From: TPA_inf: Saccharomyces
Lineage: Eukaryota
DNA length: 64,000 nucleotides
Assembly (NCBI GenBank): GCA_000146045.2
Contig: BK006947.3
Location: 608,001-672,000 of the forward strand
Direction of reading: 5' to 3'
Part shown: one piece after another, positions 1,686 through 20,875 of the stretch
Layout: every line of letters begins with the position of its first letter
Position numbering within the stretch: position 1 is the first letter of the stretch
The notes under the pieces: model-generated
The model's input: the letters and a program-made list of their open reading frames with translations, nothing else
The model's database searches: none
What the model was told of the DNA's origin: nothing
Position numbers and translations under genes: made by a program

Positions 1686-3665
1686 ATGCAAAAACTCCTC
1701 TTTGTCTTTTCTGTGTTATTGACAGTAGTACTAGCAACAGCACCATTTCAGGTACAATGTCCTAGCTCTCCACTTATTAGGGAGGCCAAAGTAAGTTAAA
1801 CTCTTTGCCACTTTAACAAATATGGGCCAAAACTAACCGAATATACCAAAACTTCGTATTCCTTTGTTTATTAGCATGAACTCTGTCCAGAAGAAACCTT
1901 GTATCTGAAGAAAAAAAAAATTAAAACGAAGAATAAACTGATTCAGTTTTTAAAATCCTTGACAGAGGCAAAGTTTAGTTCGAAGTTTTATAAACGCGTG
2001 TTGAAAGATCCTCCAAAAATTGGGATTGCTATATCTGGCGGCGGGTACAGATCCATGTTAGTAGGTACCGGATTTATTTCCCAAATGAACGATTATGGCC
2101 TTTTTGAATATTCGGATTATATTGCTGGATTATCAGGCGGAAGTTGGATCTTGATGGATTTGGTAGTTCAAAATTTTGAAGTAAAATCCCTGCTACAAGA
2201 GTGGGACCTTGAAGAGGATCTTTTATTAGGCATACCGGAATTCGATATTTCCGAAGAAGAAATTGTTACCAATGCAAAAAAGGAGTATAATGATAATGAT
2301 TTGAAGATGAAGAAGCGTCAGGGGGGTTCTCTGATTACAAGCTCTTCAAATTTTTATGAACAAATAGAGGAGATCATGAATTCCATAGAAGAAATCCCAG
2401 AAGACTATATGATAACGAAGAGAAACTTGAATCCATTAGCAAGACTAAAAAAAATATTCTTTCCTAACAACACTTTCACTGGAACTGATGCGAAGATTGA
2501 AACCTTTAAAAAAGTGCTAGACTTTTACAAAAGTTTGCATTTGAAAATTAAGCCTAAAAAAATGGAGGGTTTCCAAATATCGTTCACCGATTATTGGGGT
2601 AAAGCAATCGTTCAAAGACTAAAAAAAAATTTCGATGACGATCCCAACCATTCCTTTTCGTTTTCGAAGCTTGTAAACTCGTCTAAAAAATTTAAGGAAT
2701 GCAGTGTGCCGATCCCAATATTCGTTGCAAATTGCAAAAATGGACTTCTTTCAAACGTTATATTTGAATTTACGCCCTTTGAATTTGGATCTTGGGAAAA
2801 TATCCTCAGACTTTTCGTCAAGTTGCCCTATTTGGGCTCAAAAATTGTTTCTGGAAAGGCCGAGAAGTGTATTAATAACTTTGATGATCTAGGTTTTATT
2901 ACTGCGACGTCTTCTTCAATATTCAACAATGTGCTCATCTTCATCTGGAATTTGGCTTCTCAGTCCTCCAGAGAAGCAATGAAAGCTTTGAATATGGTTA
3001 TGGGAATTTTTGGCCTAGGTAAAGAGGAAATATTTAGTATTTCGAAAGACTCCTCGAGATTAGAGACAGACTATGCCGTATATCAACCCAATCCCTTTTA
3101 TCTTTATCCTGAAAAAGACAATGTCCTAACTAACAAAAATCATTTATACCTTGTAGACGGCGGAGAAGACGGCGAGAATATTCCACTCAGAACATTGGTG
3201 ATTCCTGAAAGGGAACTAGATGTAATTTTTGTTCTGGATTCTAGTTCGGATATTGACAACTATCCAAACGGCTCCAAGTTAAAAAGGATATTCGAAAAAT
3301 TAGATGAAGAGAACGTTCATTACCAATTTCCGAACAATGTAAAAACATTCACTCACCCCATTGTTATAGGATGCAATGCTACCAAAAGAACTGGACATGA
3401 TTCATTTTTGCCAATTATAATTTATCATGCCAATGCGAATCATGGAAACGCATCTAATACGTCGACATTCAAAATAACTTACAATCAGTCTGAAGTTAGC
3501 AGTATGTTACCCACTGGAAGGGGAGTGTTTAGCAATGATTATGACCTTTATTATAAAAATTGCTTAGGCTGTATATTAACCAAAAGAACAATGGACAGGC
3601 TCCCAAGAAAAAAGAAATTTTCGCCATTTTGCTTACAATGCTTTAAAGACTACTGTTACTCATAA
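1686..3665 (+). CDS. SPO1: Phospholipase B-like meiotic protein; spliced CDS join(1686..1790,1875..3665), 631 aa
   Basis: Exon 1 starts at ATG 1686 (MQKLLFVFSVLLTVVLATAPFQVQCPSSPLIREAK, a signal-peptide-like N-terminus) and ends at 1790, followed by GTAAGT. Exon 2 resumes in the track frame at 1875 (HELCPEETLYLKKK...). PLB lipase motif GIAISGGGYRSM. Total 632 codons. Confidence 0.85.
1791..1874 (+). other. SPO1: Spliceosomal intron of SPO1 (84 nt): 5'ss GTAAGT, branch-like AACTAAC at 1831-1837, 3'ss TTAG
   Basis: Seen directly. Splicing restores the frame between an ATG-initiated signal-peptide exon and the long ORF that otherwise has no ATG start (track start was TTG at 1899). Confidence 0.8.
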
Positions 3666-3835: not shown

Positions 3836-5170
3836 TCAGTTTTTAAGGCCAATTTGATTCAGAACCTTTTCAAGTTCTTCACTTTCCATCTTATCCGAAG
3901 ACGCGATCTGGTGGCATCTAATACTATGCTTCTCGAATATCGTTTCATCAATTTCAATTTCACCATTTTTTAGGTAAACAATATCAGTAATAAAATCTTG
4001 CCATTCAAAGTCATCATTCTCTGAATGGACACCCTTAGATTGCCTATAGCCTGCTATTGCCCTACTCATAGAATCTATGATCATTTGAACGTAGTGTAAA
4101 CCGTCTAAACCAAAAACCTCTCTATCATATTTATTATTTATGAGCAAAACTTTTTTCGTATTATTAGATTCCAAAATTACTTCAGCAAGATTACCAAGAA
4201 TAAGGATTGGGAGTAAACTTGTCATTAAAGAACCGATAGAATAAACGACCATGTCAGCTTTTTTCACCTTGGAAATAGCTCTTGGATTTCCCATTGGTTT
4301 TATCTCTTCGCCATATGGGTTTATATACAATATCCTATGTACCGGAGCAGGTAGATTCTGTGATTCATCAAGCTTGTCAAAATGCAACTGGGAGTTTTTC
4401 AGTTCTGGAAGAATATAGATAGGATTGGCATACTCCTCTTCCGCTTCTTCTTCCTCATCGTCGAGGAGAATTTTCAAATGGTCGTCATAAGAGCCAAGTA
4501 AATGAATAAATTTAGCTGAATGTGCTATGCTATTATCTTTAGGAACAGATTTCGAGGGATGCGATATTTGTGATTGGCCAGTTATCATCTCACCATTCGT
4601 CAACAAAGCCGAGATATGATGTGTGTGATTGGTATTTATACATGGAATAACATGAACTAGAGGACTGCACCTTCCTATCCTCATCATTAGTTCAATAGAT
4701 GCGTCTAGAGAACCTAAAAACAATCTAGCACCAGTTAAGAAAAAATTTCCAATGGATGCACTCTCAAACTGAAATGGATTCGAGTGTTTGATTTTTTTCA
4801 AGAGTTCTGCTTGCATATGGATAATAAAAGAACGACACATTTCCTTAACTTCTATCGAAATATTTTTCCATATGGGATGCGAACCTTCCACTATTTCATT
4901 CCATTCTTTCTTAGCTAATAACTTATCATTAGGTAGCCTATGGCCAAACAACTCGACAAGCTGTTCATCTTGAAGTAGTCTCACTATTCTAGATCTGATA
5001 TCACCAATTGCTGGGCCACCAACTATTCGTAGAATTTCACTTGTGGACCCGCCATTATCTGATATTGGCAATATATACGTCAGCTCATGTCCTTTTAAGA
5101 TAGAAATATTAGAAAAGCAAGGAGTCAATGAATTTGTGGCAGTCCCACCGGAGCACACAACGACGTTCAT
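3836..5170 (-). CDS. Uncharacterised CofD/YvcK (UPF0052, 2-phospho-L-lactate transferase-like) family protein, 444 aa (YNL011C)
   Basis: ATG-initiated ORF. N-terminal MNVVVCSGGTATNS...ISDNGGSTSEILR matches the CofD/YvcK fold signature. Carries an acidic insertion DDEEEEAEEE. Confidence 0.85.
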   Translation of the reverse strand: MNVVVCSGGTATNSLTPCFSNISILKGHELTYILPISDNGGSTSEILRIVGGPAIGDIRSRIVRLLQDEQLVELFGHRLPNDKLLAKKEWNEIVEGSHPIWKNISIEVKEMCRSFIIHMQAELLKKIKHSNPFQFESASIGNFFLTGARLFLGSLDASIELMMRIGRCSPLVHVIPCINTNHTHHISALLTNGEMITGQSQISHPSKSVPKDNSIAHSAKFIHLLGSYDDHLKILLDDEEEEAEEEYANPIYILPELKNSQLHFDKLDESQNLPAPVHRILYINPYGEEIKPMGNPRAISKVKKADMVVYSIGSLMTSLLPILILGNLAEVILESNNTKKVLLINNKYDREVFGLDGLHYVQMIIDSMSRAIAGYRQSKGVHSENDDFEWQDFITDIVYLKNGEIEIDETIFEKHSIRCHQIASSDKMESEELEKVLNQIGLKN

Positions 5171-5634
5171 CTAGTAAACTATCTCACCACACTCTGCTAT
5201 TTTGTCCCCTTATTACCTCGAGGGAACAAAAGATTCCGTTTCCTCTCTTTCATAGTCCGCCTAAATAGCTTAAGAAATAAACCCAAACATCACACATTAG
5301 CGTTCTTTAGGAAATACGAAACAGGTTAATACAACAGTAGTAACTTTCCACATAATATCTAAGCATTACACGCTGAAAAAAACTCTTTATTGGATATCAA
5401 CAACCCAACACATTGTACGACATATTCTTTTATCGTTCTACTATGGTACCCTGTTCAAATCTCTTTTTCTAAAATGAGCGAAATTTTCGAAAATTATCGC
5501 ATAATTTTTCATCATCTTAAATTAAAAAAATACAGTGTCCTCTATTGTTTATCTCAACAGAACGCACACATTCTTGAAACTTGCTCACATAACATAAGCT
5601 GGAGTGACATAGCATTTATATATATACAAGGGAA

Positions 5635-6360
5635 ATGGTCAAAGCTGTTATTTTTACCGATTTCGACGGTACCGTTACTTTGGAAGATTCTAACGATTAT
5701 CTGACCGATACTTTAGGTTTCGGTAAGGAAAAAAGATTAAAGGTCTTCGAAGGCGTGTTAGATGATACTAAGTCTTTTAGGCAAGGTTTCATGGAAATGC
5801 TGGAATCCATCCACACCCCTTTCCCTGAGTGTATCAAGATCTTAGAAAAGAAAATTCGATTGGATCCTGGTTTCAAGGATACATTCGAATGGGCTCAAGA
5901 AAATGATGTCCCTGTCATCGTTGTTTCCAGCGGAATGAAACCAATTATCAAGGTTTTATTGACCAGATTAGTTGGACAAGAGTCTATTCACAAAATTGAC
6001 ATTGTTTCCAATGAAGTGGAAATCGATGCACATGATCAATGGAAAATCATCTATAAGGATGAAAGTCCCTTCGGACATGACAAATCCAGAAGTATCGATG
6101 CTTATAAAAAGAAATTTGAATCTACCTTGAAAGCAGGTGAACAAAGACCCGTTTACTTTTACTGTGGTGACGGTGTTTCTGATCTAAGTGCTGCAAAAGA
6201 ATGTGATTTGCTATTTGCCAAAAGAGGTAAAGATTTGGTCACTTATTGTAAAAAACAAAACGTCCCATTCCATGAATTCGATACCTTCAAAGACATCTTG
6301 GCTAGCATGAAACAAGTTCTGGCTGGTGAAAAGACAGTCGCTGAATTGATGGAAAATTAG
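5635..6360 (+). CDS. PYP1: HAD-superfamily phosphatase (phosphoserine-phosphatase-like; YNL010W, reported as polyol/sugar-alcohol phosphatase), 241 aa
   Basis: HAD motif I FTDFDGTVT and motif IV GDGVSD. ATG at 5635. Confidence 0.85.
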   Translation: MVKAVIFTDFDGTVTLEDSNDYLTDTLGFGKEKRLKVFEGVLDDTKSFRQGFMEMLESIHTPFPECIKILEKKIRLDPGFKDTFEWAQENDVPVIVVSSGMKPIIKVLLTRLVGQESIHKIDIVSNEVEIDAHDQWKIIYKDESPFGHDKSRSIDAYKKKFESTLKAGEQRPVYFYCGDGVSDLSAAKECDLLFAKRGKDLVTYCKKQNVPFHEFDTFKDILASMKQVLAGEKTVAELMEN

Positions 6361-6820: not shown

Positions 6821-8083
6821 ATGAGTAAAATTAAAGTTGTTCATCCCATCGTGGAAATGGACGGTGATGAGCAGACAAGAGTTATTTGGAAACTTATCAA
6901 AGAAAAATTGATATTGCCATATTTAGATGTGGATTTAAAATACTATGACCTTTCAATCCAAGAGCGTGATAGGACTAATGATCAAGTAACAAAGGATTCT
7001 TCTTATGCTACCCTAAAATATGGGGTTGCTGTCAAATGTGCCACTATAACACCCGATGAGGCAAGAATGAAAGAATTTAACCTTAAAGAAATGTGGAAAT
7101 CTCCAAATGGAACAATCAGAAACATCCTAGGTGGAACTGTATTTAGAGAACCCATCATTATTCCAAAAATACCTCGTCTAGTCCCTCACTGGGAGAAACC
7201 TATAATTATAGGCCGTCATGCTTTTGGTGACCAATATAGGGCTACTGACATCAAGATTAAAAAAGCAGGCAAACTAAGGTTACAGTTTAGCTCAGATGAC
7301 GGTAAAGAAAACATCGATTTAAAGGTTTATGAATTTCCTAAAAGTGGTGGGATCGCAATGGCAATGTTTAATACAAATGATTCCATTAAAGGGTTCGCAA
7401 AGGCATCCTTCGAATTAGCTCTCAAAAGAAAACTACCGTTATTCTTTACAACCAAAAACACTATTCTGAAAAATTATGATAATCAGTTCAAACAAATTTT
7501 CGATAATTTGTTCGATAAAGAATATAAGGAAAAGTTTCAGGCTTTAAAAATAACGTACGAGCATCGTTTGATTGATGATATGGTAGCACAGATGCTAAAA
7601 TCAAAGGGCGGGTTTATAATCGCCATGAAGAATTATGATGGCGATGTCCAGTCTGACATTGTGGCACAAGGATTTGGGTCTCTTGGTTTAATGACGTCCA
7701 TATTGATTACACCTGATGGTAAAACGTTTGAAAGCGAGGCTGCCCATGGTACGGTGACCAGACATTTTAGAAAACATCAAAGAGGCGAAGAAACATCAAC
7801 AAATTCAATAGCCTCAATATTTGCCTGGACAAGGGCAATTATACAAAGAGGAAAATTAGACAATACAGATGATGTTATAAAATTTGGAAACTTACTAGAA
7901 AAGGCTACTTTGGACACAGTTCAAGTGGGCGGAAAAATGACCAAGGATTTAGCATTGATGCTTGGAAAGACTAATAGATCATCATATGTAACCACAGAAG
8001 AGTTTATTGATGAAGTTGCCAAGAGGCTTCAAAACATGATGCTCAGCTCCAATGAAGACAAGAAAGGTATGTGCAAACTATAA
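6821..8083 (+). CDS. IDP3: Peroxisomal NADP-dependent isocitrate dehydrogenase, 420 aa, C-terminal CKL (PTS1)
   Basis: NADP-IDH motifs throughout ([35 protein letters not shown]). Ends ...GMCKL, a PTS1-type tripeptide. Confidence 0.92.
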
Positions 8084-8210
8084 ACCAATCCGCCATTCAT
8101 TTGAAAAGACAAGTCTGGCCTAGGGTTATAGTGTTCAGACTTGAGGTTGAACATATCCAAAAAAAAAAATTCCTATGATGTCTTAAATACGTATACCTAA
8201 TAAAATAATT

Positions 8211-10241
8211 CTAGACTATATTCAACTTACTGTAACCCTTCACCTCACTATCACAGCTGACGCATGTAGCAAATCCTTTATAACCCAGAGATATCCTACA
8301 ATCATCGCATAATGCAAGGCATCTACAGGGCCAAGTTACAATATTTCTTTTATTAACTTTGCAGATTAGGCAGGAGAGATCCATTTCCTCCACTTCGTCG
8401 CAACTATCAAAGGCAAAATCAAACTTGAACTCTAATTTGTCATCGTCCTTCATATTTAAACGTTTGTACATATACCTGGAGTTTGTATGATGCAGAAGGC
8501 GTTCAATAACAACATCGACTAGTACACCTTGTGGGTTTCTTTTACCATATTGTGATCTAGTCAACGGTCCATTAACCTTATTATGGACATCCATTTCATA
8601 ATTTAAAATAGACCACATGGAGATGTTCCAGGCTATTTCCTCTAAATCATCAGAATCGACAGCATTACTTGATAAATGTGTTAATTCTTTTTCTTCATCA
8701 ATAATCAACTGACTTTCCATATCACTATCAAACTCTTCATCTGAAACACTTTCATCGATTTTTCTGGGGGGAAAGTAGTCTTTTGATGAATCGTCTTCAG
8801 GAAGCAATAACTCCAGGCTTCTGAGATCACTCTCAATATTAAGCTCTTTGACGTCCGGTTTATATAAAAACTTTTTATAGTTTTTTTCTGTAACATATTT
8901 GTTTAAATCCCTCTTTTTACGCTTTCCCACTCTCGGTTTCTTATCTATACTGCTCTCAAAATTTTTACTCCACAGAAGATTTTTTAGGAGTCTAGAATAC
9001 GTCAAAATAATGGTTCTTACTAATTCAAAAAGGCCTAAATATGTCCTCGCAAAACCTGGTAACTGGGAATCGGTAGTCATTTCCTTACGAGATAACAGAT
9101 CCTCTGGTGTCGACTGGAGTTGGTTTAAATGTCCACTAACCACATAACTATTACTGAAAGCAGCGACTTCATCAACGGATTTTACGTTGTCTGATTTCTT
9201 AAATATTTTATAGTCATTCGACGTTAAAAGTAGACACAATGAAAGAGCTATTTCGTTAAACTCCTCTTCTCCATTGTAATTATTTGATCTCCACCATTTT
9301 TCCAAGTTTTTATATCTTGAATATAATGATCGGAACGGATTACTGGTGAACAAAGCCTTCAGGAAAATGCCTATAGACGCCAGTAATATGGTGGAAATAT
9401 AGAAAAAGCCAGGGAAATAATTGTGAATGAGACAGATGTTAATAAAATCTAATCCGTTCAAATAGGTCCTAGTGACGAATGCGGTAAAAAAACCCGCGTT
9501 TAATATAACTTCTCCACATAATCTATAGGCTCTTATATGAAACAATTCTACCAAATGAATTACTAATCTGTGAAAAACCGCTCCTAGTAGTTCAACATTA
9601 TCGCCAATATGCTGCTGCCCCGCGGGCATTTTGGATATGATATAAAGATTCAATGATAAACCCCATATGGAAAAATCAGAGCATATTAATGAAGGAACGT
9701 TCGTCGTTGAAGAAATAAAAATTTCAATGCAGTCAGACAGAGCTACAAATAAATAGACACTTAAAGCATAAAAATCTGTATCACTCACGTGCAGTTCATG
9801 CATGAGTCCAAATTGACTCAGAATTTGTAAAAGTGCTTTAACCAGTGAAAGAGTGGCTACTAAATGGAGCAAAGTTTTTGACCAAAGAGGTAAACGAATG
9901 TTTGTAGAATTTGATCTCAATGAAGACATTACAGTCAACCTATTCAAAATAATGGCGGTACTAAAACATAGAACAGCATACTTACTTACCGAATAGGAGA
10001 AAAACATTCTAATTCCTACCTTAGCTAGTTGCAAAGTGGTGAAGTTACCTTTCTCCATCAATGCTTGAAAAGAGTCCAAAGTTGGGGCTGAAACTATTGT
10101 AGAATTTGGACTTACAAAAACTTCCGGTTTCTGAGTTGTGTTATCTAGGTAATTAAGATTTCCAGTCTTGTTGTGAAAAAAGCTAAATACATCTCTGTTA
10201 TGGAGCAATTGCTTAACATGTTGCAATATATTTGTAGACAT
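8211..10241 (-). CDS. ASI3: Polytopic inner-nuclear-membrane RING ubiquitin ligase subunit (Asi complex), 676 aa
   Basis: Multiple TM segments. C-terminal RING-like CLICKVNKRNIVTWPCRCLALCDDC. Confidence 0.85.
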   Translation of the reverse strand: MSTNILQHVKQLLHNRDVFSFFHNKTGNLNYLDNTTQKPEVFVSPNSTIVSAPTLDSFQALMEKGNFTTLQLAKVGIRMFFSYSVSKYAVLCFSTAIILNRLTVMSSLRSNSTNIRLPLWSKTLLHLVATLSLVKALLQILSQFGLMHELHVSDTDFYALSVYLFVALSDCIEIFISSTTNVPSLICSDFSIWGLSLNLYIISKMPAGQQHIGDNVELLGAVFHRLVIHLVELFHIRAYRLCGEVILNAGFFTAFVTRTYLNGLDFINICLIHNYFPGFFYISTILLASIGIFLKALFTSNPFRSLYSRYKNLEKWWRSNNYNGEEEFNEIALSLCLLLTSNDYKIFKKSDNVKSVDEVAAFSNSYVVSGHLNQLQSTPEDLLSRKEMTTDSQLPGFARTYLGLFELVRTIILTYSRLLKNLLWSKNFESSIDKKPRVGKRKKRDLNKYVTEKNYKKFLYKPDVKELNIESDLRSLELLLPEDDSSKDYFPPRKIDESVSDEEFDSDMESQLIIDEEKELTHLSSNAVDSDDLEEIAWNISMWSILNYEMDVHNKVNGPLTRSQYGKRNPQGVLVDVVIERLLHHTNSRYMYKRLNMKDDDKLEFKFDFAFDSCDEVEEMDLSCLICKVNKRNIVTWPCRCLALCDDCRISLGYKGFATCVSCDSEVKGYSKLNIV

Positions 10242-10506
10242 CAGTCAAACTTTTGAAAATCCCTACGTAATGACTGTTCCTGACAAATTGTAGCCTCTCG
10301 GTGACCTTCTGTCAAGTCAACCATTCCTTACATACATCATTTATATGCCAGAGGGCAGGGTAATGCAGACATACAAAAACTTTAATTTACCGCGCACCGC
10401 ACCGCGCAATTTAAGATTATTGAGTCAAAATTAATGATGTATATTATATGATTTCTGTGGTGATAAATTTATTTGAGTTTATAATTATATTTGCTTAGGA
10501 TTACTA

Positions 10507-11565
10507 TTAAAAATTTTCATCTATAGCACGTTTTTGAGCGTCGTTTAGTGATATTGGATAGTCCACTTTATATTTTACAATCAAATTACCTCTCTGAGAT
10601 GGGTTCTTTGGAGTTGGCATACCTTGACCAGGATAAGTAGAAGTTTGTGAGGGTTGGACAGGCTGTACTCTCGACAAAGGTAAGGTTCTGCCATCAATTG
10701 TTTGGATAGTTTTTGAAAAACCTAACAATGATTCCTTGAAAGATAGTGGCAGAGTGTAAATTAGGTCATCACCGTCTCTTTTAAAGTTTGGATGGCTCTT
10801 TTCCTGGATGACAAACTGCAAAGTCTTTCTACGGCCCGTTTGAGGATTGTAATCACCCTGGTTCTTGTATGTTATTTTGGTACCAGCTTTCCAACCCGGT
10901 TTTAATTGAATGTCAATTTGTGTCTTTTCAGAGGCCCCATGTGGGCCCTTTCTTCCAATTTTAAATGACTTCTTTTTACCAACAAACAAATCTTCTAGAC
11001 TAACTGGTAAATTAACTTGAACTGTTTCTTCCTCTGGATACGTGGGAGAGCTTGATGCTGATCTAAAGCCGCCAGGCATACCTCCCATGCCGCCATGCAT
11101 TCCTCCCATTCCTCCAGGCATACCTCCCATACCAGCACCGCCGCCAGATGGATAACTAGAGAAACTGAAGCCACTGTCATCAGCACCACCGAATGGGGAA
11201 CTGCCGCCAAAGAATTGTGAAAAAATATTGAAAGCATCCTCATTACTGAACGCATGTCCTCCGGAGAATCCGCCCGCACCGCCAGGGAAGCCTCCAGCAC
11301 CTCCAGCACCGCCAGGACCACCAGGACCAAAGCTTGGACCACCAGATCTAGCAGCCTCGAGACCGTATTGATCATATATTTCCCTTTTTTGAGGATCATT
11401 TAAAATTTCAAAGGCCTCTGATATCTCCTTAAACTTTTCTGTGTCACCTGTTGGCTTATCTGGATGATATTTTAGAGCTGCTTTTCTATAACCCTTTTTC
11501 AGTTCTTGCTCATTAGCACTTGGAGATACTCCAAGTAAATCATAAAGTTTTGTCTCCTTGACCAT
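10507..11565 (-). CDS. SIS1: Type II Hsp40 (DnaJ) co-chaperone, 352 aa
   Basis: J domain with HPD (YHPDKP), then G/F-rich and G/M-rich low-complexity regions, then a C-terminal peptide-binding domain. Confidence 0.95.
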
Positions 11566-11887
11566 TATTAGTTCTGTATACTATACTCTATTATATTGAT
11601 GTGAATGTATTAAAAAAAAAATCTTAAAATGCAAACAACTTATCCTTTATCCTCTGAAGAGTTTCTGGATGGTTATACAATTCTAAGTCGTTAAAAGAAT
11701 TCGTGTAAGAGCTTAAATAATATTAATTAGAATTTTTGACAAGAAAGCGCATAAGTTTAAAAAGGGATTAACAATACGGTAAAGGGACGAGAAATCTATA
11801 CAATATATATTAAATCTCGAACTACCTTGGCAAGGAGTTTGTGCTGACAGTGGTTGAAAAACCCGTAAAAGGATATCCCATTCTTTT

Positions 11888-11910
11888 TCCAGAAGTTTCT
11901 GGAACGTTCA
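11888..11910 (+). promoter_or_regulatory. Heat-shock element: five contiguous alternating units TTCcaGAAgtTTCtgGAAcgTTC
   Basis: Perfect nTTCnnGAAn array ~325-345 bp upstream of the SIS1 ATG, in the divergent SIS1/LST8 intergenic. SIS1 is a known Hsf1 target. Confidence 0.7.
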
Positions 11911-12066
11911 TATAAACCAAAGAGGGTAACACAATACGTTAAGATTCAGAAAAGTAACGACTAGCTATTACTGATCATGTTATAGAAGAGTGCGACAACC
12001 ATATATTATTAGCGCAGCGATCAACGTGGCAGTCTTGTCATCCATATAAAAAAGGAGTTCTGATTG

Positions 12067-12978
12067 ATGTCTGTTATCTTAGTATCTGCTGGCTATGACC
12101 ACACAATAAGATTTTGGGAGGCTCTTACTGGGGTTTGTTCAAGAACAATTCAGCATTCCGACTCACAGGTTAATCGCTTAGAAATCACCAACGATAAAAA
12201 GTTGTTGGCAACAGCAGGCCATCAAAACGTACGGCTTTATGACATTCGGACGACAAATCCCAATCCAGTAGCATCCTTTGAGGGTCATCGGGGAAACGTT
12301 ACCTCCGTTTCTTTTCAACAGGACAACAGATGGATGGTGACCTCTAGCGAAGATGGGACCATTAAAGTTTGGGATGTGCGTTCTCCGTCCATTCCTAGAA
12401 ATTACAAACATAACGCACCAGTAAATGAAGTCGTAATTCATCCTAACCAAGGCGAGTTGATATCTTGTGATAGAGATGGTAATATAAGAATTTGGGACTT
12501 AGGAGAAAATCAGTGTACCCATCAATTGACACCTGAGGACGATACCTCTCTCCAGTCTTTATCTATGGCAAGTGATGGTTCGATGTTAGCGGCAGCAAAT
12601 ACTAAAGGTAATTGTTACGTATGGGAAATGCCAAATCATACTGACGCATCCCATCTAAAACCGGTAACAAAATTCAGAGCGCACTCCACATATATAACTA
12701 GAATTCTACTATCATCTGATGTAAAACATTTGGCAACATGTTCAGCGGATCACACTGCTCGTGTGTGGTCGATTGATGATGATTTTAAGCTAGAAACGAC
12801 ATTGGATGGCCACCAAAGGTGGGTTTGGGATTGCGCATTTAGTGCTGACAGTGCGTATCTAGTAACGGCATCGTCCGATCATTACGTGAGATTATGGGAT
12901 TTATCAACTAGAGAAATTGTCAGACAGTACGGTGGACACCACAAGGGAGCTGTATGTGTCGCATTAAACGATGTATAG
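12067..12978 (+). CDS. LST8: WD40-repeat TORC1/TORC2 subunit, 303 aa
   Basis: First ATG at 12067 (MSVILVSAGYDHTIRFWEALTGV). The track start 12064 is TTG. Seven WD repeats. Confidence 0.92.
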   Translation: MSVILVSAGYDHTIRFWEALTGVCSRTIQHSDSQVNRLEITNDKKLLATAGHQNVRLYDIRTTNPNPVASFEGHRGNVTSVSFQQDNRWMVTSSEDGTIKVWDVRSPSIPRNYKHNAPVNEVVIHPNQGELISCDRDGNIRIWDLGENQCTHQLTPEDDTSLQSLSMASDGSMLAAANTKGNCYVWEMPNHTDASHLKPVTKFRAHSTYITRILLSSDVKHLATCSADHTARVWSIDDDFKLETTLDGHQRWVWDCAFSADSAYLVTASSDHYVRLWDLSTREIVRQYGGHHKGAVCVALNDV

Positions 12979-20757: not shown

Positions 20758-20875
20758 GTCACGTGCAGCTTTTTAAAAATATTTTAAAACATTTTAAAAA
20801 ATATACATTTTTTTATTATTTTTTTATATATTAATGTTAAAATTTATTTATGTATTTGTCTTCCGAAAAGTAAAA
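20758..20875 (+). other. CEN14: Point centromere: CDEI GTCACGTG (20758-20765), 85-bp >90% A+T CDEII (20766-20850), CDEIII TGTATTTGTCTTCCGAAAAGTAAAA (20851-20875)
   Basis: All three elements have canonical sequence and spacing, including the central CCG of CDEIII. Located between DOM34 and CIT1. Confidence 0.92.

Follow-up and report, generated by a model that had tools for sequence, protein, structure and literature searches.

The window analysed here, a 64,000-nucleotide stretch of Saccharomyces chromosome XIV, carries at positions 3836..5170 of its minus strand (the strand of all features given below) a single ATG-to-stop reading frame in the window's ORF listing. This is a complete ORF of 444 amino acids, S. 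cerevisiae YNL011C, encoding a CofD/YvcK-fold protein (ORF listing, Pfam PF01933, AF2, Foldseek). The product equals an S. cerevisiae protein except for the polymorphisms T410R and S430G, its nearest relatives carry the YNL011C label in other Saccharomyces species, and residues G40, L66, F115 and C168 with their coordinates agree, at a window offset of 608,000, with the chromosome XIV positions of YNL011C in PMC9578706. Both the gene and its CofD-family assignment are already found in databases. The gene is non-essential (PMC9731477), the protein has been detected by mass spectrometry, and alignments of 34 yeasts and of 70 fungal representatives indicate strong purifying selection across fungi. 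It is neighboured by a phospholipase-B-like ORF and a HAD phosphatase ORF. Linkage to the latter, the divergent gene YNL010W, is seen in Lachancea too but not in Komagataella or C. albicans, and we therefore regard it as ordinary Saccharomycetaceae synteny and reject a conserved functional linkage. YNL011C also appears in screens for direct-repeat recombination and the Pol delta network, in a motuporamine dosage suppression (on a five-gene fragment) and in an Nfs1 pull-down; these are non-specific and were not used.

The earlier note on this DNA had recognized a CofD/YvcK nucleotide-binding signature in the protein (VVCSGGTATNS, residues 3-13, and DNGGSTSEILR, residues 38-48 of the translation) and had named a profile HMM search as the way in which this placement could fail. 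The search upholds it: the Pfam CofD model PF01933 matches residues 3-426 over model positions 1-273 of 290, with 149.2 bits against a cut-off of 30 (E 1.9e-43). A structure prediction compared with CofD and YvcK, also proposed there, leads to the same fold. The AF2 model (pLDDT 80.5, pTM 0.82) has as its top Foldseek matches the YvcK/UPF0052 crystal structures 2ppv, 2q7x, 2o2z and 2hzb (TM 0.74-0.79) and fits CofD/FbiA less well (TM 0.54-0.61); Foldseek probability is 1.00 for these four as well as for 3c3e and 6uvx, and no other fold was retrieved at E <0.05. A profile of the fungal YNL011C family matches YvcK structures in the PDB at E 1e-19, and hhalign aligns the fungal family with YvcK at a probability of 99.9% (E 2e-32). 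Thus profile HMM, profile-profile and fold comparison agree that YNL011C belongs to the CofD/YvcK (UPF0052) superfamily. Ten long fungal homologues scanned with Pfam show the CofD domain alone, with no fused domains, and the papers found to mention YNL011C assign it no biochemical function, in line with the note's statement that its role is undefined.

Given the name of the Pfam family, the shared fold and a shared pair of metal-binding aspartates, one might ask whether the protein is a genuine CofD, i.e. an LPPG:Fo 2-phospho-L-lactate transferase, or makes an F420-like cofactor. Fungi are not known as producers of F420 or Fo, and yeast has no F420. The curated NCBIfam model F420_cofD (TIGR01819, cut-off 257 bits) gives no match to the yeast protein at E<=1, whereas an FbiA control scores 410.7 bits; the fungal profile finds no CofD or FbiA chain in the PDB even at E<=10; and the fold is clearly less similar to CofD than to YvcK. 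In addition, the Fo-pocket motif of FbiA/CofD, HFQ(E/D)(W/F)W, is replaced in yeast by GQSQISHP, and the 69-102 segment by an unrelated 50-residue helical insertion. A true CofD function is effectively refuted.

The other two curated subfamilies fare little differently. Against TIGR01826 (YvcK/GlmR, cut-off 196) the yeast protein reaches 82.8 bits, spread over three separate stretches, while a Halalkalibacter YvcK control reaches 411.5. TIGR04357, the model for the "GAK-system CofD-like" proteins, is the top-scoring curated model for yeast and for the other fungal, plant and bacterial relatives tested, and the YNL011C and GAK families align end to end (probability 99.96%, E 8e-39), but the yeast score is 103.9 bits against a cut-off of 340, and genuine members score 487-494. 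Judged by sequence, the YNL011C protein is not YvcK/GlmR, true CofD or GAK-system CofD-like, as it falls below all three curated cut-offs. On tree and motif evidence it is the yeast member of a distinct clade, defined here and represented by no curated model in the libraries searched, that includes fungi, land plants (MEE18), protists and some bacteria. The combined clade was recovered in 192 of 200 neighbour-joining (NJ) bootstraps (96%), with GAK as its sister in 54%. Its signature, consisting of W90, H98, W101, GQxxISHP, N345 and DRE, is invariant or nearly so within the clade and different in GAK and YvcK (the residue table samples 10 fungal, 8 plant or protist and 10 bacterial sequences, plus GAK and YvcK). 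The note's picture of a eukaryotic member of a prokaryote-dominated family holds as to membership, but the protein is no isolated oddity, since its clade spans these eukaryotic groups as well as some bacteria.

Bacterial clade members are about 380-400 amino acids long, and at least one comes from a Parachlamydiaceae-like genome; the yeast protein aligns with a bacterial member over its full length at 30% identity (E 2e-59). No conserved operon or gene neighbourhood was observed at the eight bacterial loci examined. PlsC/Cls and PlsC-Cmk-CdsA-UppS neighbours of some members are convergent, and NUDIX genes lie within 5 kb (<=5 kb) at three loci, where they are neither adjacent nor co-oriented and can serve as a lead only. 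A link to anti-phage defence was considered and rejected, as no PADLOC model matches the yeast protein, a GAK CofD-like protein, a chlamydia-like homologue or two GAK cassette proteins.

The conserved residues cluster in a few motifs. The glycine-rich SGGTATN loop (residues 7-13, positions 5132..5152), a putative nucleotide/phosphate loop by conservation and alignment with YvcK, has G8, G9, T10 and N13 conserved at >=95% in the 70 fungal representatives, and T10 corresponds to T13 of Bacillus halodurans YvcK, a residue that contacts NAD (PMC5482804). The next motif, SDNGGSTSEILR (residues 37-48, positions 5027..5062), holds the first putative metal-binding aspartate, D38, as well as G40, the site of the G40V change discussed below; D38, G40, G41 and S42 are invariant in fungi, plants, bacteria, GAK and YvcK. 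GDIRSR (residues 56-61, positions 4988..5005), whose RS(R) extension is common to GAK proteins and not found in YvcK, supplies the second putative metal-binding aspartate, D57. In a transitive alignment from yeast to YvcK to FbiA, D38 and D57 are the equivalents of FbiA D45 and D57, which coordinate the metal (Mg2+/Ca2+) and the GDP beta-phosphate (PMC7253369). The route through YvcK was taken because aligning the fungal and FbiA profiles directly gave an untrustworthy, visibly mis-registered result (probability 8.6%); the YvcK-FbiA profile alignment, at a probability of 94%, pairs D37 and the aspartate of GD in YvcK with D45 and D57 in FbiA. Both yeast aspartates are invariant in all groups sampled.

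Further along, SIGSLMTS (residues 311-318, positions 4217..4240) aligns with GPGSLYTS of YvcK and APSNPVVS of FbiA and is a candidate diphosphate-binding loop, in which G313, S314, T317 and S318 are invariant. NNKYDRE (residues 345-351, positions 4118..4138), whose DRE is a clade signature by alignment, has as its counterpart in FbiA loop 239-254, the one closing over GDP (PMC7253369); its N345 corresponds to YvcK N217, a contact for NAD or UDP-sugar (PMC5482804), and its E351 aligns with YvcK E224 and FbiA E254. The clade-defining motif, GQSQISHP (residues 198-205, positions 4556..4579), emerges from the residue table and the alignments, where it is matched with "GESxIP" of YvcK and "HFQEWW" of FbiA, and it falls within residues 145-189 of FbiA, a subdomain forming the Fo pocket (PMC7253369). 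Fungi and plants show no variation at its G198, Q199, I202, S203, H204 and P205, 9-10 of 10 bacterial members keep these residues, and they differ in GAK and YvcK.

A genetic lead comes from a published evolution experiment with sec53 lines. YNL011C changes G40V, F115L and C168F were found in sec53-V238M lines and L66F in sec53-F126L lines, and the gene was called a known SEC53 genetic interactor by the authors (PMC9578706); the supplement table of that paper contains no nonsense or frameshift change in YNL011C. G40V lies in the DNGGS loop. According to the supplement it always occurs with EXO70 C434S and MIC10 R62H, each five times, and since it invariably travels with these two it must represent a single lineage; we therefore reject the published "7 missense" in sec53-V238M as independent events. 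A local mutation hotspot or hitch-hiking may also lie behind the changes, because one synonymous YNL011C change is present in sec53 lines as well. The SEC53 evidence for YNL011C is weaker than published. Taken with the authors' description of the gene as a SEC53 interactor, the four independent missense changes suggest that YNL011C acts in the cytosolic metabolism of hexose phosphates or nucleotide sugars.

A genetic interaction with SEC53 would suit a non-catalytic sensor or regulator of hexosamine or hexose-phosphate flux, comparable to B. subtilis GlmR, that binds UDP-GlcNAc or another UDP-sugar and modulates glucosamine-6-phosphate synthase (Gfa1) or another enzyme by contact. GlmR, a non-catalytic regulator, stimulates GlmS and is released by UDP-GlcNAc (PMC7525490), so that a conserved site is in itself no proof of catalysis, and YvcK proteins are the solved structures closest to YNL011C in both sequence and fold. 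Of the four YvcK contacts for NAD or UDP-sugar (T13, N217, Y264 and R300 in B. halodurans numbering), two are conserved in the yeast family, as T10 and N345. Y264 is kept in part, its counterpart Y399 being Y, F or H within fungi and V or other residues in plants and bacteria, while R300, without which B. subtilis GlmR does not bind UDP-GlcNAc, stands opposite a gap in the alignment and is matched by no conserved basic residue. The low YvcK model score given above, a 50-residue insertion that YvcK does not have and the lack of a YvcJ/RapZ or WhiA partner adjoining YNL011C also speak against a GlmR-like sensor, and the aspartate pair and its surrounding loops, invariant all the way from chlamydia-like bacteria to plants, look more like those of an enzyme. 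We consider such a regulator rather unlikely.

Far less probably, YNL011C would back up Qri1, Ugp1 or Psa1 as an auxiliary nucleotidyltransferase for sugar 1-phosphates, the activity put forward for Listeria GlmR (GlcNAc-1-P + UTP to UDP-GlcNAc + PPi). Yeast D38 does align with Listeria GlmR D40, and a side activity forming nucleotide sugars could interact with a defect in GDP-mannose supply. However, two of the three residues mutated in Listeria GlmR are not kept in the YNL011C family (D41 is N39 in 8 of 10 sampled fungi, including all ascomycetes, and N198 of the LPN motif is I322), and YNL011C lies outside the YvcK subfamily.

The protein carries two insertions. The first (residues 86-135, positions 4766..4915; hhalign, AF2 and residue table), a 50-residue helical insertion that the earlier note did not mention, holds the conserved W90, H98 and W101 as well as F115, the site of F115L. 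AF2 predicts helices at 83-95 and 106-127, with block-mean pLDDT of 93-96 (residues 81-120) and 72-78 (121-140). Its length is 46-57 residues in almost all members of the clade, two basidiomycete sequences being shorter; the corresponding segment between the HRL and SIGN motifs has 46 residues in GAK proteins and 3 in YvcK, and the yeast insertion is collinear with that of GAK and alike in sequence.

The second insertion (residues 208-275, positions 4346..4549) is, by segment lengths and AF2, a fungus-specific and mostly disordered loop expansion. Segment 206-277 has 72 residues in yeast and 46-89 in other fungi, compared with 15-22 in plants, protists and bacteria, and its counterpart has 10 in GAK and 7 in YvcK; predicted pLDDT is <50 at residues 210-249 and 262-269. 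It contains the acidic patch DDEEEEAEEE (residues 237-246, positions 4433..4462) to which the note had drawn attention, and which does lie in an insertion relative to bacterial homologues, predicted to be disordered. In a composition test this run, with 9 of 10 residues acidic in a protein with 13% D+E overall, was matched by none of 20,000 shuffles. The loop also includes PELKNSQLHFDK (residues 255-266, positions 4373..4408), a segment conserved in Saccharomycotina, in which P255, L257, S260 and K266 are invariant in 34 yeasts and AF2 places a short helix (255-262) at low confidence.

Could the acidic insertion be a functionally important novelty, e.g. a docking site for a basic partner? Its composition is far from chance, an acidic run recurs directly upstream of E(Y/F)ANP in most Saccharomycotina, and the loop sits in a segment homologous to the acceptor-pocket subdomain of FbiA. 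The position, length and sequence of the patch are nevertheless unconserved, so much so that this stretch is mostly gaps in a pan-fungal alignment; the expanded loop is confined to fungi and predicted disordered, its acidic fraction is only 0.04-0.20 in the other fungi sampled, and all four sec53-line missense changes fall at residues 40-168, outside it. We hold an important role for it to be quite improbable. By the alignments, what the note called an acidic insertion is a loop expansion specific to fungi and poorly conserved, and insertion 1 is the more informative of the two.

Given these features, YNL011C most likely acts on, or binds, a metabolite linked to a nucleoside diphosphate in a Mg2+-dependent manner, as far as can be told from the conserved residues. 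The protein would bind an NDP-X (e.g. a nucleotide sugar) together with a divalent cation and pass phospho-X to a hydroxyl acceptor with release of NMP, as in CofD/FbiA; at minimum the ligand would be bound. In the sequence alignment, GQxxISHP and the fungal loop would lie in the segments that build the FbiA acceptor (Fo) pocket, and the helical insertion beside them. Because the parts that differ from YvcK and FbiA map to or next to these acceptor-pocket segments, the chemistry may be the same as that of FbiA with another donor and another acceptor, and the acidic patch would be a disordered, fungus-specific decoration of the loop outside the conserved machinery. Taken as a whole, the account of a soluble CofD/YvcK-fold orthologue of MEE18, on a distinct branch, that binds or acts on NDP-X and a divalent cation in a SEC53-related pathway has in our estimate about an even chance of being right. 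A far more speculative extension, which we put forward as improbable, is that the clade performs a reaction new to eukaryotes. In a Mg2+-dependent step, phospho-X would pass from an NDP-activated donor, either a nucleotide sugar or a small molecule activated by CDP or GDP, to a hydroxyl acceptor. The phosphodiester or bisphosphate metabolite thereby formed or broken down would adjust phosphomannomutase and N-glycosylation capacity in yeast, and plant plastids would require it in gametophyte or embryo development. On this view environmental chlamydiae and early eukaryotes would have exchanged the gene.

YNL011C is among the yeast ORFs still lacking an assigned function, and its plant orthologue MEE18 is known for a phenotype in reproduction rather than for a mechanism. 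A putatively complete CofD/FbiA NDP and metal site, combined with acceptor-side elements of its own and distinctness from GlmR, leads to a short list of testable biochemistry, and the missense changes in sec53, a PMM2-CDG model, suggest looking at sugar-phosphate or nucleotide-sugar pools. Medical relevance is indirect, since humans appear to be without the gene (no human homologue is among the homologues listed). The Parachlamydiaceae-like relatives add one more case to the debate on gene sharing between chlamydiae and eukaryotes.

Among known systems, YvcK/GlmR (B. subtilis, L. monocytogenes; 2HZB, 2O2Z, 2PPV, 2Q7X) provides the closest solved structures and characterised relatives. The GGT loop, D-x-GGS, GD-x-R, GS-L-x-TS, N217 (yeast N345) and E224 (yeast E351) are common to both. 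YvcK differs in having an E and a shorter loop where yeast has Q199 and ISHP, Q-x-E where yeast has DRE, and neither of the two insertions; its linkage to yvcJ/rapZ (and whiA) is not seen at YNL011C, operon logic being inapplicable in yeast. GAK CofD-like proteins, seen on plasmids of Rhodobacterales and Alteromonadales, share with yeast the 50-residue helical insertion, SGGxAxN, GD-x-RSR, GQxQI and the C-terminal KYD, but have DPE rather than DRE, no H204 or P205, and T instead of P at position 35. On two plasmids they stand in a cassette with an APH/PhoU phosphotransferase, a RimK-type ATP-grasp protein, an HprK-related kinase B, a histidine phosphatase, a metallophosphoesterase and an amphi-Trp protein (and a NUDIX protein in one of the two). 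A GAK-like cassette is found neither near YNL011C nor at the eight bacterial clade loci examined, and a literature search for the "GAK system" found none.

Within the clade the closest comparison is Arabidopsis MEE18 (At2g34090, "maternal effect embryo arrest 18") and its plant orthologues, many of which NCBI names "uncharacterized protein YNL011C". A Solanum MEE18-like protein is 35% identical to the yeast protein over 380 residues (E 2e-70), and the plant proteins have the 50-residue helical insertion and GGTxxN, DxGGS, GDIRSR, GQxxISHP, GSLxTS and N..DRE as in yeast. They add a Ser-rich N-terminal extension of 45-75 residues and are without the expanded acidic loop (17-22 residues vs 72 in yeast). 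In tomato the orthologue turned up in the proteome of the chloroplast stroma (PMC10493611). For MEE18 a gametophyte/embryo phenotype is reported, as cited in PMC6134632, whereas YNL011C is non-essential. Finally, CofD/FbiA (3C3D/3C3E, 6UVX-6UW7) shares the fold (Foldseek E 1e-8 to 1e-6) and, by transitive alignment, the two putative metal-binding aspartates, the diphosphate loop and the nucleotide-closing loop. Direct sequence similarity to the yeast protein is undetectable and the acceptor-pocket segments are entirely different, but CofD/FbiA is the best mechanistic template for YNL011C, with the reaction NDP-X + ROH -> NMP + X-P-OR.

The open reading frame on the reverse strand at window positions 3836-5170 (444 codons, ATG to stop) encodes all three strings quoted in the earlier note, namely VVCSGGTATNS (residues 3-13), DNGGSTSEILR (residues 38-48) and the acidic DDEEEEAEEE. 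Its product differs from the database representative, from S. cerevisiae strain YJM1388, at two residues (T410R and S430G), which lie in the weakly conserved C-terminal part. The proteins nearest to it in other Saccharomyces species carry the label YNL011C, and the coordinates of G40, L66, F115 and C168 coincide exactly with the chromosome XIV positions published for YNL011C (taking the window to start at about 608,001). The assignment to the CofD/YvcK (UPF0052) family made in that note is borne out by a profile HMM search, in which Pfam CofD (PF01933) matched residues 3-426 with 149 bits (cut-off 30, E 1.9e-43). Among the curated NCBI models, the "GAK system CofD-like protein" model (TIGR04357) scored 104 bits against a cut-off of 340, the YvcK model (TIGR01826) 83 bits against 196, and the true CofD model (TIGR01819) gave no match; as positive controls, FbiA scored 411 bits on TIGR01819 and a Bacillales YvcK 411 bits on TIGR01826. 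Sequence searches of the PDB, using YNL011C alone (E ~1e-11) or a profile of 34 yeast sequences (E 1e-19 to 1e-14), returned YvcK-type chains only, the CofD and FbiA chains being undetected even at E<=10, and in a profile-profile comparison the yeast family matched YvcK over 300 columns (probability 99.9%, E 2e-32). An AlphaFold2 model built from the yeast alignment was confident (pLDDT 80.5, pTM 0.82) except at residues 43-49, 210-249 and 262-269, and the structural comparison suggested earlier gave the same ranking: in Foldseek against the PDB the best matches were the YvcK structures 2ppv, 2q7x, 2o2z and 2hzb (E 1e-14 to 1e-13, target TM 0.70-0.79), followed by CofD and FbiA (E 1e-8 to 1e-6, TM 0.54-0.61), with no significant fold beyond these three. 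For practical purposes, YNL011C can be ruled out as a factor in F420 synthesis.

The neighbours of YNL011C are ORFs for a phospholipase-B-like protein, for a HAD phosphatase (divergent) and for an isocitrate dehydrogenase. The first of these (1899-3665, forward strand) has a TTG as its mechanical start, and its true start probably lies in an upstream exon; SPO1/YNL012W has a 5' intron. The HAD-family phosphatase ORF (5635-6360, forward strand) is separated from YNL011C by a 464-bp intergenic region (5171-5634). This pair is kept in Lachancea and is absent from the loci of Komagataella and C. albicans, so that a deep functional linkage is not implied. Further along the window there is a point-centromere-like element (20759-20867, forward strand; TCACGTG, a 95-bp very AT-rich stretch, then TTCCGAA), a pattern matched once against 0.01 expected by chance, which fits CEN14 given the place of the window on chromosome XIV, as well as two tRNA genes predicted by ARAGORN and confirmed by Rfam, tRNA-Pro(AGG) at 23845-23917 on the reverse strand and tRNA-Asn(GUU) at 24598-24673 on the forward strand.

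Searching with YNL011C yielded 1,226 clusters in a 90%-identity database and 1,863 representatives in a separate 50%-identity library, 241 of them below E 1e-30. Named relatives come from Saccharomycotina, Pezizomycotina, Basidiomycota, Mucoromycota and chytrids, one cluster contains a marine protist transcript, and one further relative is encoded on a compact eukaryotic contig, where its neighbours are TOM20, SET and kinase genes. The plant relatives go by the name "maternal effect embryo arrest 18" (At2g34090, MEE18) or "uncharacterized protein YNL011C"; the yeast protein is 35% identical to a Solanum protein over 380 residues (E 2e-70). Plant orthologues carry an N-terminal Ser-rich extension of 45-75 residues, and in tomato the orthologue of At2g34090 has been found in the chloroplast stroma (PMC10493611). 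The lower part of the best 150 matches includes proteins of 376-405 aa, and eight such proteins, some drawn from a follow-up search with one of them (P0231), are encoded on contigs whose gene content and packing are bacterial. P0231 itself aligns with the whole of YNL011C at 30% identity (E 2e-59), and its motifs include GQSSISHP and HDRET; the search with it gave about 45 metagenomic matches and then a long run of land-plant proteins with Mucoromycota interspersed. On the 1.78-Mb contig that encodes another member, P0309 (JBGAGC010000001.1), LepA is 90-93% identical to that of Candidatus Protochlamydia/Parachlamydiaceae. This indicates that at least the P0309 host is an environmental chlamydia, and hence that the closest prokaryotic relatives of the plant and fungal gene include amoeba-associated chlamydiae. 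The neighbourhoods of the bacterial members at the eight loci gave no hint of a pathway. At one locus (L093, 4941-8309) the gene is convergent with a PlsC-type acyltransferase and cardiolipin synthase, at the P0309 locus (8001-12256) it is convergent with PlsC, cytidylate kinase, CdsA and UppS, and NUDIX genes occur within 5 kb in three others (L092, L096 and L098); such proximity may be due to chance, eight loci being too few to judge.

In a small, distance-based neighbour-joining tree of 38 sequences (200 bootstraps), fungi, plants, protists and bacterial members grouped together in 192 replicates, a grouping we refer to as the YNL011C/MEE18 clade; plants plus protists were recovered in 191, fungi alone in 168, YvcK in 199 and GAK in 195. 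The clade shares the signature GGTxxN, P35, DxGGS, E45, G52, GDxRS, RL(78-79), W90, H98, W101, F133, GN, GQxxISHP, Y282, GSLxTS, N345 and DRE. A sister position of the GAK proteins, weak in the tree (107 of 200), is supported also by a shared 50-residue insertion. Proteins annotated as GAK system CofD-like were matched when plasmids were searched by tblastn with YNL011C, contiguously over yeast residues 2-217, and the yeast profile aligned with two of them end to end over 346 columns (probability 99.96%, E 8e-39). Like YNL011C they have insertion 1, SGGxAxN, GDxRSR, GQxQI and a C-terminal KYD, but they lack insertion 2. On two Rhodobacterales plasmids (L087, 462-8086; L088, 1802-9080) the CofD-like gene faces a cassette encoding an APH/PhoU phosphotransferase, a RimK-type ATP-grasp protein, an HprK-related kinase B, a histidine phosphatase, a metallophosphoesterase and a small amphi-Trp protein, with a NUDIX gene in L087 only. 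We found no literature on the GAK system.

The two insertions are defined by the profile-profile comparison with YvcK (residues 86-135 and 208-275). The first, modelled as two confident helices, is 46-57 residues long (segment 85-136) in all but two basidiomycete sequences of the clade, 46 in GAK and 3 in YvcK. The second is disordered in the model and contains the acidic patch (residues 237-246; 4433-4462, reverse strand), which thus lies in an insertion, as the earlier note had stated; nine of its ten residues are acidic, against 13% D+E for the protein overall, a run not matched in any of 20,000 shuffles. Segment 206-277 measures 46-89 residues in fungi, 15-22 in the plants, protists and bacteria of the clade, 10 in GAK and 7 in YvcK, and acidic residues account for a fraction of 0.22 of insertion 2 in S. 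cerevisiae, compared with 0.04-0.20 in the other fungi; the sole stretch of the insertion conserved among budding yeasts is PELKxSQLHFxK. Thus, judging by these lengths and compositions, the acidic insertion is a lineage-specific loop expansion.

Four residues contact NAD in B. halodurans YvcK, and of the B. subtilis GlmR mutants at these positions two abolish UDP-GlcNAc binding and two weaken it slightly to moderately (PMC5482804). Mapped through one of the 80 Bacillales YvcK genes recovered, which retains the B. halodurans numbering, T13 corresponds to yeast T10 (T or S in fungi, T in plants), N217 to the invariant N345, and Y264 to Y399 (Y, F or H in fungi, not kept in plants or bacteria), while R300 falls in an alignment gap with no conserved basic residue. 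The main rival to an enzymatic role is that YNL011C is a GlmR-like non-catalytic sensor. An accessory uridylyltransferase is less probable: Listeria GlmR has three proposed catalytic residues, D40, D41 and N198 (PMC10128056), aligned with D38, N39 and I322 in yeast, and two of the three are not kept. In a profile alignment of YvcK with M. smegmatis FbiA and M. mazei CofD (probability 94%; sequences taken from PDB alignments), YvcK D37 and the GD aspartate align with FbiA D45 and D57, which, along with the GDP beta-phosphate, coordinate the catalytic cation (PMC7253369). The putative metal-ligand pair in yeast, mapped transitively through YvcK, is thus D38 and D57.

None of the nine publications found to mention YNL011C addresses its function, which agrees with the earlier view that its biochemical role is undefined; the gene appears as a neutral, non-essential integration site and the protein is seen in published proteomes. 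In an experimental evolution study of sec53 (phosphomannomutase) mutants, YNL011C, listed by the authors as a known SEC53 genetic interactor, acquired multiple mutations in sec53 populations only, tallied as seven missense and no loss-of-function changes (posterior 0.99 for selection on non-loss-of-function; PMC9578706). According to its mutation table and supplementary file 12, sec53-V238M lines carried G40V (chrXIV:613,052, window 5052; five clones), F115L, C168F and the synonymous A329A, and sec53-F126L carried L66F, all heterozygous. EXO70 C434S and MIC10 R62H also occur exactly five times each, and all three changes are found together in both clones that were read completely, which indicates that G40V represents one lineage and that the seven missense changes overcount independent events. 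The corrected count is four missense and one synonymous in a 1.3-kb gene; four independent missense events are well above the roughly 0.1 expected for a gene of this size (about 620 nonsynonymous mutations over nearly 6,000 genes), yet weaker than published, and hitch-hiking or a local hotspot might also account for them. G40 is part of an invariant loop, two positions past D38, the putative metal ligand, and F115 lies in insertion 1. Since CofD and FbiA are dimers, a dominant-negative effect would be consistent with heterozygous missense-only changes.

Public databases already list the gene as non-essential and assign it to UPF0052/CofD (every homologue comes with a precomputed Pfam domain, and plant proteins bear the YNL011C name at NCBI), so the family finding as such was known. 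What is added here is its position outside all three curated subfamilies, a clade with plant, protist and chlamydia-like members, its signature motifs, the finding that the acidic loop is specific to a lineage, a correction to how the sec53 data are read, and the mapping of conserved and variable parts on the FbiA mechanism. The best-supported reading places YNL011C, as the orthologue of plant MEE18 in yeast, on a branch of its own within the CofD/YvcK superfamily, with an intact putative nucleoside-diphosphate and metal site and predicted acceptor-side elements specific to its clade. The most economical mechanism would be chemistry of the CofD type, with an NDP-activated donor and an acceptor other than those of CofD, or at a minimum specific binding of an NDP-activated ligand, and the pathway is probably hexose-phosphate or nucleotide-sugar metabolism. 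In FbiA, segments 69-102 and 145-189 form the pocket for the acceptor Fo; insertion 1 starts three residues past the former, and GQSQISHP (yeast 198-205) and insertion 2 fall inside the latter, whereas NNKYDRE (yeast 345-351) falls within loop 239-254, which closes over GDP. With D38, D57 and the loops kept and the divergent parts located at the Fo-pocket segments, the alignments argue that the donor and metal side is conserved between YNL011C and FbiA and that the acceptor side is what differs.
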